From Acidobacteriota bacterium (GTDB lineage: Bacteria; Acidobacteriota; Vicinamibacteria; Vicinamibacterales; 2-12-FULL-66-21): a DNA stretch of 64,000 bases. This document shows, piece by piece, positions 3,143 to 57,338 of the stretch. The position numbers were made by a program, and so were the translations under genes. The stretch lies in contig JBKPQB010000010.1 of assembly GCA_046733875.1 (NCBI GenBank), positions 690 to 64,689 on the forward strand, read 5' to 3'. How positions within the stretch are numbered: the first letter of the stretch is position 1; every line of letters starts with the position of its first letter. The notes beneath the pieces are model-generated. The model was not told where the DNA came from. It ran no database searches and saw nothing but the letters and a program-made list of their open reading frames with translations.

Positions 3143-3493
3143 CTAGGCTTTCTTCTCTGCTGATGCAGACGCTTCGGCGGGTTTCGCTGGCGACGCGGAC
3201 GACTCACCCGTCGCGGACGACGACTCACCCGTCGCGGACGACGCCCCGCTCGACTTGGACGCGTCCTTCGAATCCGTCGCCGCGTTCCCGTCCTTCGACT
3301 CGCTCGATGACTTCTTCGCGTAATCCGTCACGTACCAACCGGATCCCTTGAACTGGATCGCCGGCGACGAGAGCAGCTTCTGCACCGGACCCTTGCCGCA
3401 CTGCGGGCAGACGTCGACCGGCGGATCGGAGAATTTCTGAATGCGTTCGAATCGATGATGACAGGCGTCGCACTGATATTCGTATAAGGGCAT
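3143..3493 (-). CDS. FmdB-family zinc-ribbon protein with Ser/Ala-rich tail
   Basis: MPLYEYQCDAC...CPQCG...IQFKGSGWYVTDY signature. The tail contains a 21-bp tandem duplication (SSATGES x2, about 3195-3240). Confidence 0.92.
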   Translation of the reverse strand: MPLYEYQCDACHHRFERIQKFSDPPVDVCPQCGKGPVQKLLSSPAIQFKGSGWYVTDYAKKSSSESKDGNAATDSKDASKSSGASSATGESSSATGESSASPAKPAEASASAEKKA

Positions 3494-13788: not shown

Positions 13789-14397
13789 CTACCAGCCGCT
13801 CACATATGGCAACCGCTCGGCCACAGCCCTCACTTCGTCGAAGTTCTCGAGCAGCAGACCGGTCGCATCCCAGCTGCCATTGAGGAACGCATCGCGCGCC
13901 GCGGCGGGCAACGAGAGAGGAAAGCTCCGGCCGGCCGCGCTCACCTCCATCGACTCCAGATTGGCCGTCAGTTTCGTTTCGGGATTGCGCTCGACGATGT
14001 CCATGAGCGTGTTGACGGCATCCGCGCTCGCTGTGGGACAAGGCATCCCGAGCGCAACCGAATTGCCGAAAAAAATCTCCGAGAAAGACTGCCCGAGCAC
14101 GAGGCGAATCCCGCGACGCCGGATTGCCTGGGGCGCGTGCTCGCGCGACGAGCCGCATCCGAAGTTCGCGTTCACGAGCATGATCGACGCGGACGCGTAG
14201 GTCGGGTTCGATACCGGATGTGTGCCCGACTGCCGCACATCCACCTGACGACGATCGTCTTCGAAGAGATGCTGCTCGAGCCCTTCGAAGGTGATCGCTT
14301 TCAGGAACCGCGCGGGAATGATTCGATCGGTATCGATGTCGTCGCCGCGCACGGGGAGCGCGGTGCCCGTGATCTCGCGAACTCGTTCAACGGCCAA
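13789..14397 (-). CDS. leuD: 3-isopropylmalate dehydratase small subunit
   Basis: [37 protein letters not shown]. Confidence 0.96.
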
Positions 14398-15784
14398 TGG
14401 CCACCTCCGCCGTGGCGAACTCGCGCACGTCGACGACTTCTCCCGCCACCGCCGCCGCTGCCACCATCGCGGGACTCATGAGGAGCGTACGTCCCGTCGG
14501 GCTTCCCTGTCGTCCCTTGAAGTTGCGGTTCGAAGACGAGGCGCAGATCTGGCGTCCCTCGAGGCGATCGGGGTTCATCGCGAGGCACATCGAGCACCCG
14601 GCGCCGCGCCATTCGAAGCCCGCGTCGGTGAAGACGCGATCGAGCCCTTCGCGCTCGGCCGCGGCGCGGACGGCCTGTGAACCCGGGACGACAATCGCCT
14701 GCACGTGGGAGGCGACGTGCTGTCCCTGCACGACGCGCGCGGCCTCGCGCAGATCCGACAGGCGTCCGTTCGTGCACGAGCCCACGAACGCGACGTCGAT
14801 GCGCGTGCCTTTCAGCGGCTGACCGCGGCTGAATCCCATGAACGACAGCGCCTCGTCGTCTGCCGACGCCGGAATGCGCTCGTCGATTGCGATCGACTGG
14901 CCGGGATTGATGCCCCAGGTGACGGTCGGCCGGATCCTCGACGCCTCCAGCGTGATCTCATCGTCGTATCGCGCGTCCGGATCGGACGCCATGGACATCC
15001 ACCACGCCGACGCGCGCTCGAAGTCGTCCCCCTGCGGCGCGAGCGGACGTCCGCGCAGGTACTCGATGGTCGTGCGATCCGGATTCACGTAACCTACGCG
15101 CGCCCCGCCCTCGATCGACATGTTGCAGATCGTCATGCGCTCTTCCATCGACATGCGCTCGATGGTGTCGCCCGCATACTCGTACGCGTATCCGACGCCT
15201 CCCTTGACGCCGAGCCGCTGGATGATTTCCAGAATGACGTCCTTGGCGTAGACGCCGGGCTGCAGCCGGCCGCGCACGGAGATCCGCCGTGCTTTCAGCG
15301 GGTCCATAGCGAGGCACTGCGACGCGAGCACATCCCGCACCTGCGTCGTCCCGATGCCGAAGGCAATCGCACCGAACGCACCGTGCGTCGACGTGTGGCT
15401 GTCGCCGCAGGCAATCGTCATCCCCGGCTGCGTGATCCCCAGCTCCGGCCCGATGACATGGACGATGCCCTGCTTGCCGCTGGAGAGATCGAGCAGCCGG
15501 ATGTGGTGCTCGGCGCAGTTGCGCTCGAGCGACGACAGCATCTCTTCGGCCATGAGATCGACGAACGGCCGCCGCTGATCGCGCGTCGGGACGATGTGGT
15601 CCACGGTTGCGAGGGTGCGATCGGGGAACGCGACGCGGCCGCCGCGGGCGCGGAGCATGTCGAATGCCTGCGGGCTCGTGACTTCGTGCACGAGGTGCAG
15701 GCCGATGAAGAGTTGGGTCTGGCCAGTCGGGAGCCGGCGAACGGTGTGCGCGTTCCAGACTTTCTCGAGCAGTGTGGCGCCCAT
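14387..15784 (-). CDS. leuC: 3-isopropylmalate dehydratase large subunit
   Basis: [48 protein letters not shown]. Confidence 0.98.
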
Positions 15785-15816
15785 TTGGGGATGGTACCAC
15801 GGGCGCAGGCGCCTGA

Positions 15817-15847
15817 GGAGGTTGGAGGTTGGAGGTTGGAGGTTGGA
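15817..15847 (+). repeat. Heptamer tandem array (GGAGGTT)x4, left flank of the four-helix-bundle gene
   Basis: Four perfect copies at 15817-15844 plus a partial GGA. Confidence 0.95.
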
Positions 15848-15966
15848 CGGCCGGGCGCGCGTCTTGCCGCTACAGGGCCGTCGCCCTCTCGTTCAGCGAA
15901 TTACAGGCCGTAGTTGCAGAAACAGCATTTCTGGATGCTTGGGGGGATGGCAGAAATGAGGCTCAT

Positions 15967-16392
15967 ATGAGCGAGATAAAAGATCATCGCGATCTTGAGG
16001 CTTGGCAGGTTGGTATGGAGGCTGTGATGAAGACCTATGTTCTGACCGCCGGATTTCCAAAATCGGAGACGTACGGTTTATCGGCGCAGATGCGTCGCGC
16101 TGCTGTATCGGTTCCGTCAAACATCGCTGAGGGGCAGGCGCGGCGCGCGATCCGCGCTTGTGTGAATCACCTCGGTATTGCACTCGGATCCTATGCCGAG
16201 CTGGACACACAACTGGAGGTTTCACTGCGCCTCGGCTACACAATTCCATCGGAAGCGAGAGACCTGAAGCAGTGCATCGATTCGGGCAGACGGTTACTGC
16301 ACGGACTTCGCCGCGCACAACAACGCCGTCTCGCGGCTTCGGGAGCGACGTGCGCGTTTGTGCTTCTTCTTGCGGTTCGGCTCTTCGCGTGA
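15967..16392 (+). CDS. Four-helix-bundle protein (23S rRNA IVS protein / bAvd-like family)
   Basis: MSEIKDHRDLEAWQ...FPKSETYGLSAQMRRAAVSVPSNIAEG...ALGSYAELDTQLE family signature, with an extra hydrophobic C-terminal tail. Confidence 0.92.
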   Translation: MSEIKDHRDLEAWQVGMEAVMKTYVLTAGFPKSETYGLSAQMRRAAVSVPSNIAEGQARRAIRACVNHLGIALGSYAELDTQLEVSLRLGYTIPSEARDLKQCIDSGRRLLHGLRRAQQRRLAASGATCAFVLLLAVRLFA

Positions 16393-16591
16393 CCTGCGTT
16401 CCATCACCGAAGCGACTGCCCGGCTGTCGCTCCCGAGTCGCCAACTGCTCGATCCGCATCACGGCCTTGGACCCTTTCTGTCCCGGATGACGTTTGTCGT
16501 TCTGCTCATCACGGAATGTCTTTTCAATTCGCCAGCACTGGTCGCCGGGTCGTACACACCCGGAGGCGCCCGATCAAGCAGGTGCGTCGCA

Positions 16592-16665
16592 TTCAACATC
16601 CAACGTCCAGACTCCTCCGATCCAGCGTCCAGCCCCCAACCTCCAACCTCCAGCATCCAACCTCC
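16592..16665 (+). repeat. Degenerate heptamer array (TCCARCN)x~10, inverted relative to 15817-15847
   Basis: Units TTCAACA, TCCAACG, TCCAGAC, TCCAGCG, TCCAGCC, CCCAACC, TCCAACC, TCCAGCA, TCCAACC. TCCAACC is the reverse complement of GGTTGGA. Confidence 0.9.
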
Positions 16666-16685
16666 GCGTATACTGAAGATCCCGC

Positions 16686-18959
16686 ATGTCTTTCCTCTCC
16701 AATCTGAACCCCGAACAGCGTGAGGCCGTCCTCCAGATCGACGGTCCCCTCCTCATCCTCGCCGGCGCGGGCTCTGGAAAAACGCGCGTCATCACTTATC
16801 GCATCGCCTACATCGTCGGAGACGGCCACGCCAAGCCCGACGAGGTGCTCGCAGTCACGTTCACCAACAAAGCCGCCGGCGAGATGCGCGAGCGCGTCGA
16901 ATCGCTCCTGGGGAAGGAATGCAATGGCATCTGGCTGTCGACGTTCCATTCGCTCTGCGCGCGGCTGCTGAGGCGTGAGGCGCCGCACATCGGGCTATCG
17001 CGCGATTTCGTCATCTACGACTCGTCGGACCAGATTGCCGTCGTGAAGCAGGCCGAGCGCGAGCTCGGCATCGACGACAAGCTCGTACCCCCGCGCATGG
17101 CGCTCGCGCGCATCAGCCAGGCGAAGAACCGGATGGAAGGGCCCGACTCGCTGCGCGGCCAGTGGAACCTGCGCGACGAGCAGATCGCGAAGATCTACGA
17201 ACGCTATCTGCGCGCGCTCGCTGATTCGAACGCCCTCGACTTCGACGATCTGCTCTTGAAGACCGTGGAGCTCTTCGAGACCTCGGACGCAACGCGCGAA
17301 CGCTACGCGCGGAAGTTCCGGTACGTCATGGTGGACGAGTACCAGGACACGAACCGCCCGCAATACCTTCTCATCAAGCGCGTGTCGGAAATCCATCGCA
17401 ATCTGGCCGTGGTCGGCGATCCAGACCAGTCCATTTACAAGTGGCGCGGCGCGGATCTCAGAAACATTCTCGATTTCGAACACGATTTTCCGGAGGCACA
17501 GATCGTCCGGCTCGAGCAGAACTATCGCTCGACGCAAGTGATCCTGGACGCGGCCACCGCGGTCATCCAGCAGAACCGCAATCGCAAGGACAAGCGCCTA
17601 TGGACGGAGCGCAAGGGCGGGCGGAACATTCTTTATTTCCGCGGCGGCGACGAGCTCGAAGAGGCGGACTTCATCACGCGGACCACGAAGCAGGCACGCG
17701 CCGAGGACGTCGACGCCACCCTCGCGGTGCTCTACCGGACGAACGCGCAGTCGCGCGCCATTGAAGACGCGCTCATGCGCGAAGGGGTCGCGTACAAGAT
17801 CATCGGGGGCGTCCGGTTCTACGAGCGCAAGGAAATCAAGGACGCGCTCGCCTATCTCAAGCTGATCATCAACCCGCACGACGACGTGAGTCTGCGGCGC
17901 GTAATCAACGTGCCCGCGCGCGGGATTGGCAAAGGCGTCATGGACGCGCTGCAGGCGATCGATCCCGAGGCTGTCGCGGCGGACGCTCCTCCCCTGCTCG
18001 CCGCGGGCCTCGCCGAGGTCAGCTCCGCTCGCTCTCTGTGGGCACGGCTGGTCTACGCCGTCGACGAAGGAAAGCTTGGCAATCGTGCGGTCGCGTCGCT
18101 GCGCGTCTTCCGCGATCTCATCGTGGGCCTCGCGCAGGCCGCGCGCGAAGATCCCGTCTCCATCGCGATCGGGAAGATGCTCGATCGAACCGGATACCTG
18201 AACGATCTCCGCGAGGAGAATTCCGAAGAGGCGAACGAACGGATCGAGAACCTGATGGAGCTCGTCTCGGCGGCGCGCGAGTACGAGACGCGTGAACCGG
18301 AGGCCTCCCTTGGCGGGTTCGTCGACCGCCTCTCGCTGCTCTCCGAGGCCGATGAAGAGTCGGGCACGCGGGAAGCCAAGGTCTGGCTGATGACGATGCA
18401 CGCGGCGAAGGGGCTGGAGTTCCCGGTCGTGATCATCGCGGGGATGGAGGACGGTCTGTTTCCGCACTCGCGTTCGTCCGAGGATGAGGCCGAAATCGAG
18501 GAGGAGCGCCGCCTCTTCTACGTGGGCATGACGCGTGCGGAATCGCGTCTCGTTCTGACGGGCGCGGCGCGCCGCCGGATCTTCGGCGAGTACCAGGGGA
18601 CGCAGCCGTCACGATTCCTCGCGGAGATTCCCGCGGAGCTCGTCGAGCGCGTCGACGTGGAGAGGCCGGCGTACCCTGGGACGTTTACGCACGCACATTA
18701 CGAGTTCCGGACGAACCCGTACGGCCGCAAGGGACGGGGCGCGCGGTTCAGGGAGGACGCGCCCACTTACGCCTACGAGGACGAGGATCAGTCGGGGGCG
18801 GCGCTCCGGCCCGGCATGCGCGTGAGGCACGCGCAGTTCGGCGTCGGGACCGTGCTCGCGGTCGATGAGCATACCGACGATCTCAAGGTGACGGTCCGTT
18901 TCAATTCAGTGGGTCAGAAGAAACTGCTCGCGAAGTTCGCGAAGCTCACTCCGGCGTAG
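16686..18959 (+). CDS. pcrA: UvrD/PcrA ATP-dependent DNA helicase
   Basis: LNPEQ, AGAGSGKTRV, VDEYQDTN, VGDPDQSIY, LEQNYRS, TMHAAKGLEF, EERRLFYVGMTRA, C-terminal Tudor-like VRHAQFGVG. Confidence 0.95.
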   Translation: MSFLSNLNPEQREAVLQIDGPLLILAGAGSGKTRVITYRIAYIVGDGHAKPDEVLAVTFTNKAAGEMRERVESLLGKECNGIWLSTFHSLCARLLRREAPHIGLSRDFVIYDSSDQIAVVKQAERELGIDDKLVPPRMALARISQAKNRMEGPDSLRGQWNLRDEQIAKIYERYLRALADSNALDFDDLLLKTVELFETSDATRERYARKFRYVMVDEYQDTNRPQYLLIKRVSEIHRNLAVVGDPDQSIYKWRGADLRNILDFEHDFPEAQIVRLEQNYRSTQVILDAATAVIQQNRNRKDKRLWTERKGGRNILYFRGGDELEEADFITRTTKQARAEDVDATLAVLYRTNAQSRAIEDALMREGVAYKIIGGVRFYERKEIKDALAYLKLIINPHDDVSLRRVINVPARGIGKGVMDALQAIDPEAVAADAPPLLAAGLAEVSSARSLWARLVYAVDEGKLGNRAVASLRVFRDLIVGLAQAAREDPVSIAIGKMLDRTGYLNDLREENSEEANERIENLMELVSAAREYETREPEASLGGFVDRLSLLSEADEESGTREAKVWLMTMHAAKGLEFPVVIIAGMEDGLFPHSRSSEDEAEIEEERRLFYVGMTRAESRLVLTGAARRRIFGEYQGTQPSRFLAEIPAELVERVDVERPAYPGTFTHAHYEFRTNPYGRKGRGARFREDAPTYAYEDEDQSGAALRPGMRVRHAQFGVGTVLAVDEHTDDLKVTVRFNSVGQKKLLAKFAKLTPA

Positions 18960-37458: not shown

Positions 37459-37683
37459 GAGTGGGCGGGTGCGTGGGCGAACGCGTGTGCGTGGGCGGTC
37501 GTTTTACTGATGCTCGCGTTGACGCTTCCGCTTGCGGCACGAGTCAACGCCGAGCAGCACGCCGAACCGGTAGCCGCACCCGTACCTGCCGTCGCTCACG
37601 CATCGGCACTCGCACCCGCTCACGCATCCGCACCCGCTCCCGCATCCGCACCCGCTCACGCATCCGCCCACGCCCCTGCCCCC
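37459..37683. repeat. Two mutually complementary hexamer arrays at the atpF 5' end
   Basis: GCGNNN units (GCGGGT, GCGTGG, GCGTGT) at 37465-37500 and GCWCMC/GCATCC units (x~15) at 37594-37683. Confidence 0.75.
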
Positions 37684-57248: not shown

Positions 57249-57300
57249 CCCAGGGGTCAGAGCACTCTCGGGGTCAGAGCCCTTTGGGGGGTCAGAGCAC
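57244..57300 (+). repeat. Triple direct repeat GGGGTCAGAGC plus one inverted copy
   Basis: Copies at 57253, 57270 and 57288 (17-18 bp period); TCTGACCC at 57244-57251. Confidence 0.85.
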
Positions 57301-57338
57301 TCGAGCCCCGATTCTGACGATCACAAAATCGAAATCCG

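Follow-up and report, generated by a model that had tools for sequence, protein, structure and literature searches.

A four-helix-bundle gene between inverted heptamer arrays at an acidobacterial leuC–pcrA locus: a candidate transposase-free cassette

The leuC–pcrA locus

The window analysed here is a stretch of 64,000 nt from a Vicinamibacterales (Acidobacteriota) genome (assembly GCA_046733875.1, contig JBKPQB010000010.1, positions 690 to 64,689); the genome, denoted G000, has 2.53 Mb and is 73% complete. Between leuC on the minus strand (14387–15784; TIGR00170, 607 bits) and a gene of a pcrA/uvrD-type helicase on the plus strand (16686–18959; TIGR01073, 838 bits, slightly below the cut-off) lies a unit of ∼850 bp, which we call the cassette. 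Its left arm (15817–15847, plus strand) is a G-rich array of 4.4 copies of GGAGGTT (TRF score 62, 100% matches); its right arm (16594–16665) is a C-rich array of ∼10 degenerate (TCCAACC)-type units, in which TRF calls period 7 at 16621–16665 and a degenerate extension reaches 16594. An earlier reading made from the sequence only had described both arrays and their complementarity; TRF confirmed the former and alignment of the arms the latter, as the two are reverse complementary in more than one register (33 nt at 88%, 30 nt at 93%). That reading had also placed −10 boxes just outside the arms, and they are where it put them: a putative −10-like box of leuC (TACCAT, 15791–15796, minus strand), with promoter activity presumed, and one of pcrA (TATACT, 16669–16674, plus strand). 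The corresponding places read TANNAT and TATAAT/TATACT, respectively, in most relatives (by eye), and the two boxes can be summarised as TANNAT/TANNNT.

Contigs assembled from sequencing runs (X2, X3), one of which may be the sample behind the assembly itself, covered most of the gene and the right arm, each having 0–4 differences. No joint skipping or inverting the cassette was present in the DNA contigs of four runs placed on the window; small joints inside the arrays were seen, and these may stem from repeat copies elsewhere. The window also has further tandem repeats, namely an array of period 6/18 (37593–37673), a 17-mer in 2.8 copies (57253–57302) and a perfect 21-mer in 2.2 copies (3198–3243).

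The arms enclose, as the sequence-only reading had it, a four-helix-bundle gene of 141 codons (15967–16392, plus strand). The protein scores far above the cut-offs of TIGR02436 (98.2 bits versus 24) and PF05635 (103.5 bits versus 33.8), and its residues 5–123 match PDB entry 2GSC (E 5.9e-26). A single-sequence structure model is all-helical with low confidence (pLDDT 48.8), and a direct sequence search with the protein did not reach Avd. The nearest named homologues are from Acidobacteriota, Vicinamibacterales included. Comparison with the sister copy in the congener G001 gave dN 0.148 and dS 2.07, and dN/dS values of ∼0.06–0.2 in eight of nine pairs (those with estimable dS) point to purifying selection. 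A hydrophobic C-terminal tail (16330–16389) is found in 23 of 45 proteins of the leuC–pcrA clade and in none of 77 other family members; it is a possible membrane anchor.

Upstream of the gene, an alignment of leaders revealed four conserved elements on the plus strand. The first, just inside the left arm (interior side) and facing the gene, is GG-N8-TTGC at 15854–15867, which we take from its consensus to be a sigma54-type −24/−12 element, i.e. a predicted promoter. In the TTGC-anchored leaders of the leuC–pcrA clade G occupies position −10 in 37 and position −9 in 36 of 38 sequences, and rpoN is present in G000. The others are a TCA-N6-TTA motif at 15892–15903, presumably IHF-like, a palindrome of GCAG-N3-CTGC type at 15914–15927 and a second half-site, GCAGAAA, at 15949–15958; the pattern GCAG[AG]A[AT] was present in 23 of 39 leaders versus 78 of 1,932 control regions. 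Genes of other subfamilies carry GG-N10-GC in 35 of 61 cases, against 78 of 1,952 controls, and 31 of these 35 elements are located 12–17 nt before the start codon. Five spacings were compared, and the element turned out to be spacing-specific (a spacing one base off was found in 1/61). The sigma54-type element is rare in other lineages (2 of 83 loci). RNAalifold found no conserved RNA structure in the leader alignment.

Downstream of the gene, ∼200 nt of enclosed DNA had been called unexplained; it is indeed there, and DNA alignment to intact copies explains part of it as the frameshifted remnant of a small basic ORF on the minus strand (16410–16509, left end approximate). The remnant aligns to intact copies of this passenger ORF with scores of 47–50 (versus a median of 29), and 21 listed intact copies exist in relatives. 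They encode basic proteins of ∼50–60 aa with a conserved N-terminal NVNPGQY (L082:659–841, minus strand; L106, L112, L118, L142 and others) and have no Pfam match. The passenger ORF persists at some sites that have no four-helix gene.

Inverted heptamer flanks across the protein family

In 200 loci of relatives we found 157 genes of the PF05635/TIGR02436 family, of which 140 had both flanks (17 were dropped at locus ends). A locus was counted as passing when the inverted similarity of its flanks scored above 15, a value that marks the 95th percentile for cross-genome pairs; the leuC–pcrA cassette locus scores 25.5. Control genes were those of G000 predicted by a rough ORF caller (1,991 genes; the cassette gene itself was missed by it). 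Here, and in the other statistics given below, the loci are related and kin are not independent. Scores above 15 were obtained for 126 of the 140 family genes and for 24 of 1,847 other predicted genes of G000; among other small genes of G000, 11 of 518 are bracketed by inverted flanks. In the direct orientation only 8 of the 140 family genes pass. Period 7 is present in both flanks of 77 of the 140, the next most frequent period in 8. The G-rich arm comes first in 100 of the 126 cassettes, a fixed inverted polarity. The few other genes of G000 scoring above 15 include one (C16:16535–16868) that, in our judgement, resembles the GxxExxY family; this family may have repeat arms of its own.

The arms of a cassette match each other specifically. 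Cross pairs of flanks from the same genome pass in 9 of 392 cases, and in genomes with several loci 95 of 99 genes have their best same-genome match in their own right arm (27 expected). At the leuC–pcrA site the ranking was restricted to intergenic DNA, because coding flanks of inverted loci distorted the full ranking; there the own partner was at the top for 22 and among the top three for 39 of 59 genes, and it was the best partner within the genus for 24 of 51 (12 expected). Minor variant units are shared by both arms (32 of 50, versus ∼6 expected under a chance model that ignores mutational hot spots). The order of units is not common to the two arms (17 above and 11 below shuffles, p 0.34); sharing of variant units without sharing of order fits exchange between arms in any register. 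Taken together, these comparisons show joint evolution of a cassette's two arms.

The same layout is present at further loci from many phyla, together with five viral contigs that carry family genes: 83 of 85 have both flanks, 64 pass the threshold (compared with 66 of 657 cross pairs), and 54 of the 83 have period 7 in both flanks, with no other period found in both. Among the loci of relatives the words are diverse (60 distinct left words in 73 loci); still, left and right words agree within one base in 61 of 73 own pairs, as against 210 of 5,256 cross pairs. A search of a phage collection gave no match to the family gene. Family genes were also found in 35 plasmid records (H1–H25 are among the matches), and heterocystous cyanobacteria account for the majority of them, Nostoc for 17. 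Heterocystous cyanobacteria are known for STRR, dispersed heptamer repeats.

Turnover of the cassette and distribution of its word

Among 112 genomes of relatives, 100 had a pcrA match; 99 loci were examined, 98 could be oriented and 91 reach leuC. The set includes one genome flagged as unpublished (G098), on which none of our other claims depends. At the 91 sites the gene is intact in 42, broken in 17 and missing from 32, with gaps of at most 140 nt in 15 of the 32; empty sites between leuC and pcrA, which the earlier reading had proposed to look for, thus do exist. Gene-less sites often retain one arm, or both arms and the leader (by eye). The word at this site varies even inside one genus, while the complementarity of left and right arms is maintained.

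Cassettes of the same kind occupy other sites. The sister of the G000 cassette is located at a different site of the congener G001 (73% identity over 502 nt in an alignment spanning from left to right arm), and what G001 has between leuC and pcrA is a remote version of the gene (42%), interrupted by stops and flanked by a different word. A further four cassettes of G001 are absent from the matching sites of G000. The cassettes of G023 and G012, from the same clade as the G000 gene, reside at a site where the corresponding genes of G000 abut; the G023 cassette has the passenger ORF. No target-site duplication was evident by eye in six filled/empty comparisons, in which the flanks are too diverged. 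Relative to G114, G105 has its whole interior turned round (561 nt, 72%) while the outer flanks stay collinear, and in G048 the leuC–pcrA gene is reversed. A candidate third inversion, in G013, was rejected as an internal rearrangement of a broken gene. Loci L301 (G096) and L290 (G089) have cassettes with the same word, seemingly next to the same neighbour gene and in opposite orientation (by eye); from this comparison they are probably a further inversion.

The alignments thus show a cassette that has been gained, lost, replaced, inverted and relocated among relatives. In a quick tree with weak support, 44 intact leuC–pcrA genes form one clade with five copies from other sites (our trees have SH-aLRT support only; the G019 row of the leuC tree was out of frame and ignored). 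Through most of the family the leuC–pcrA site is occupied by this one clade, so that movement is rare and vertical inheritance plus loss accounts for much of what is seen. Each filled/empty pair may be a gain or a loss, and movement is rare relative to residence.

The word of the cassette extends far beyond its arms. The 73%-complete G000 has a single family gene and 101 arrays of period 7, compared with 1–3 arrays for each of the periods 4, 5, 8, 10 and 11. The commonest word is GGAGGTT (25 of 101 loci); gene-less inverted pairs of arrays are present as well. The arrays are mostly intergenic (91 of 101), and 20 of them have a −10-like box no more than 35 nt away, versus 225 of 3,021 control points. 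Two of three lone arrays checked are common to G000 and its congener. A lone GGAGGTT array at C15:25687 of G000 occupies the same gene boundary in G001 and G096 (L357); the same boundary in G089 (L356), a congener of G096 with near-identical flanks, is without it. At C8:23230–23500 of G000 (L331:1130–1400) a repeat of longer period, with units containing GTGTTGTTCC, lies next to a heptamer array; G001 has numerous copies of it.

Words follow the protein. The mean distance between words drops from 3.4 at protein identity below 30% to 1.3 at 60–70%. Five GGAGGTT cassettes form one protein clade (SH-aLRT 84); they occupy three sites and belong to two genera, which the leuC tree does not place as sisters; three of the five were known before and two (G096, G089) came from a targeted search. 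Of 112 genomes, 92 have no hit to a 16-mer of GGAGGTT and six have at least 13; GGAGGTT cassettes were found in five of these six. For G096 a cassette was predicted from its GGAGGTT arrays and was found, at a third site and with the same word, and a search of the remaining genomes gave one at this third site in G089; the proteins are 57% and 59% identical to the 141-aa protein of G000. The sixth genome, G093 (57% complete), has GGAGGTT arrays, and no family gene was found in it. A second word, GGTTCGC, surrounds the leuC–pcrA gene in 7 of 11 array-rich genomes; in the other four (G109, G112, G083 and G116; 64–94% complete) no matching cassette was present among the genes found, and prediction of a GGTTCGC cassette from arrays failed for G109 and G112.

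In other families of the order, five genomes with the family had 16 arrays of period 7 in 335,313 bases, seen in four of the five (19 raw calls, less 3 N-runs), whereas 337,091 bases sampled from five that lack the family had none. G035, with six family genes, had no array in the 80 kb sampled. The sequence-only reading had named, as a finding that would speak against it, arrays found genome-wide with no link to this family; genome-wide arrays are there, yet their association with the family is strong. At the level of sequence comparison, genomes that hold the GGAGGTT protein clade are those rich in lone GGAGGTT arrays. Matching of word and protein can be simple co-inheritance. Co-inheritance explains the word match around the gene; a genome-wide match needs action in trans or repeated insertion and loss.

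Interpretation and comparison with known systems

We consider the 850-bp unit to be a slowly moving, transposase-free selfish cassette that acts on DNA and whose word spreads genome-wide, with a probability of roughly 0.5. Its parts, in order, would be a G-rich heptamer arm, a predicted promoter of its own with a leader, the four-helix gene, the decayed passenger ORF and a C-rich arm. The arms would act on DNA, pairing in any register when single-stranded; such pairing would let host replication and repair enzymes copy units between the arms, invert or delete the interior and occasionally move the unit. More speculatively, a 2GSC/Avd-like pentamer might bind its own word as single-stranded nucleic acid and might promote the arm events in trans, with lone arrays and gene-less hairpins scattered into gaps by stop codons and −10 boxes as the outcome; the whole would perhaps resemble a REP/RAYT pair minus the HUH enzyme. 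No mobilising enzyme, excision or circle was seen for the cassette in this analysis. The earlier proposal of a mobile cassette with no recombinase of its own is supported by near-identical architecture at other sites of a congener, filled/empty pairs and inversion of the interior; the arms may be its binding or recombination ends.

Alternatively, the arms may pair in a transcript and RNase III may excise the gene as an RNA that is mobile or functional, possibly together with the protein and a reverse transcriptase of the host. There is a precedent in the Coxiella 23S rRNA intervening sequence (IVS), which, according to the retrieved part of PMC4990558, has an ORF of the PF05635 family, a terminal stem and heptamers in tandem, with RNase III cutting it at the first repeat. 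A computed fold does pair the arms (z −3.3, 20 shuffles), and a rough strand call puts 11 of 81 cassettes within operons of matching orientation, in which a read-through transcript would include both arms; the same call puts 17 of the 81 antisense to both neighbours. If pairing were in RNA, an excess of G·U-type over A·C-type arm mismatches could be expected. At the leuC–pcrA site the ratio, 87:63 (p 0.06), leans to RNA in a test that has no valid positive control (a tRNA control was dropped as circular, since ARAGORN brackets only pairs), but there is no overall excess, with 137:158 at other sites and 46:57 across phyla. Both arms lie upstream of the divergent host −10 boxes, outside the host transcripts, and the predicted gene promoter is inside the left arm, so no predicted transcript holds both arms; the GG-N10-GC elements of other subfamilies argue in the same direction. 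Rfam gave two chance-level hits and no meaningful match, and no reverse transcriptase (PF00078) was found in the 73%-complete G000. The promoter inside the left arm and the lack of a significant G·U bias on either strand make an RNase III stem unlikely here, and the excised RNA suggested by the sequence-only reading is not supported at the leuC–pcrA site. The arms stay matched though no predicted transcript spans both, and a role at the DNA level is the better reading here; RNA pairing is possible where a cassette sits within an operon, and for the rRNA IVS it has been demonstrated (PMC4990558). We judge the RNA element improbable.

A comparably low likelihood is assigned to a domesticated host regulator, a protein that binds the heptamer word on DNA or mRNA, with arrays as a regulon or chromosome-organising sites and its own arms as autoregulatory sites. 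Long residence at one site, the conserved sigma54-type promoter and leader, and purifying selection agree with it, as do the intergenic location of the arrays, their proximity to −10-like boxes and the lone arrays shared between congeners. Yet 49 of 91 orthologous sites have lost the gene or have it in broken form, congeners differ in their words, binding sites need no fixed inverted polarity with the G-rich arm first, and relocation together with the arms is left unexplained. There might also be no system at all: slippage in the host would create heptamer arrays in whatever gap, with the gene carried passively between two arrays of the commonest word. This gains something from GGAGGTT being the commonest array of G000 and from a polymerase-slippage origin of heptamer excess proposed in work cited in the retrieved text of PMC4692102, but this very improbable reading is largely refuted by the comparisons with partner arms and control genes: words differ among the cassettes of a genome and agree between the arms of each, few other small genes are bracketed and no arrays were seen in the sample from genomes without the family.

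Several observations weigh against the favoured reading of a selfish DNA-level cassette: G000 has ∼100 arrays of many words and one gene, the GGTTCGC word has no matching cassette in 4 of 11 genomes, G093 has arrays without the gene and G035 has genes without a sampled array. A bolder extension, which we put forward tentatively and regard as doubtful, is that each PF05635 subfamily is a sequence-specific writer of arrays. The pentamer would recognise its word and, with neither transposase nor reverse transcriptase, make a host polymerase add or copy word arrays into new gaps in trans. Gene, arms and lone arrays would together form a single system that propagates itself; rRNA intervening sequences would represent insertions of it into rRNA, and the excess of heptamers in bacteria its footprint.

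The selfish cassette that we favour is reminiscent of REP/REPIN–RAYT systems, in which a small gene lies within inverted repeats, its word fills intergenic gaps and is tied to the gene subfamily, and gene-less hairpins occur. The likeness is in the word flanking the gene, which is dispersed genome-wide (25 loci in G000) and tied to a gene clade (5 of 6 and 7 of 11 genomes for the two words). Unlike REPIN–RAYT, the cassette has no HUH Y1 transposase (the sole PF01797 match of G000 is on another contig), and unlike the palindromic REPs its repeats are tandem 7-mers whose words drift freely. Insertion sequences and MITEs differ by their fixed terminal inverted repeats; copies of the cassette have 60 words in 73 loci and arrays of variable length. 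Diversity-generating retroelements (DGRs) come to mind because the 141-aa protein matches 2GSC, a homologue of the DGR accessory protein Avd (4DWL) in sequence and structure, as stated in the retrieved part of PMC10053308. Here the neighbours are leuC and pcrA, with no reverse transcriptase or TR/VR pair nearby.

The cassette arrays are similar to STRR, which are likewise intergenic heptamer arrays with species-specific words. They are also similar to the arrays of GGGAATC in Xanthomonas and Nostoc (PMC4692102) and of TAACTGA in Beggiatoaceae (PMC4679880), which, in the retrieved text of these papers, are intergenic, of period 7, single or in convergent inverted pairs, and with species-specific words. 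The cassette differs from these published arrays in having its word tied to a protein clade; in the retrieved text the term ‘four helix’ does not occur in either paper, nor do S23 and PF05635 in PMC4679880. The same part of PMC4692102 describes the over-representation of 7-base repeats in bacterial genomes as unexplained. Two loose ends thus meet, this excess and PF05635, a large family homologous to Avd, with a solved structure and no function. The match of clade and word also offers a direct experiment, in which a named protein is set against the word predicted for it and against words of other clades as controls. Should the protein spread its word, the cassette would be a form of mobile DNA without a transposase.

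The closest relative is the S23p IVS of Coxiella burnetii and Leptospira, which, as far as the retrieved part of PMC4990558 goes, shares PF05635, complementary ends, 5′ tandem heptamers of variable number, patchy distribution and ORF decay. The ends of the cassette, too, are complementary and able to form a stem. Compared with the IVS in that source, the cassette is intergenic, between leuC and pcrA rather than in a 16S or 23S rRNA gene, has heptamer arrays at both ends, a predicted promoter of its own, an interior that inverts and matching lone arrays genome-wide; there is no sign of RNA-level pairing at the leuC–pcrA cassette. Among the papers found in a mainly open-access literature the layout is not described outside rRNA and, as far as we found, is in print only for the ORF-bearing rRNA IVS. 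Since this IVS is already known to share the protein, the stem and the heptamers, we place the cassette as a variant and not as a new kind; it would be categorically new if the trans-acting step is true. By the criteria examined, the cassette is real, family-wide and outside IVS, REPIN–RAYT, IS/MITE and DGR.
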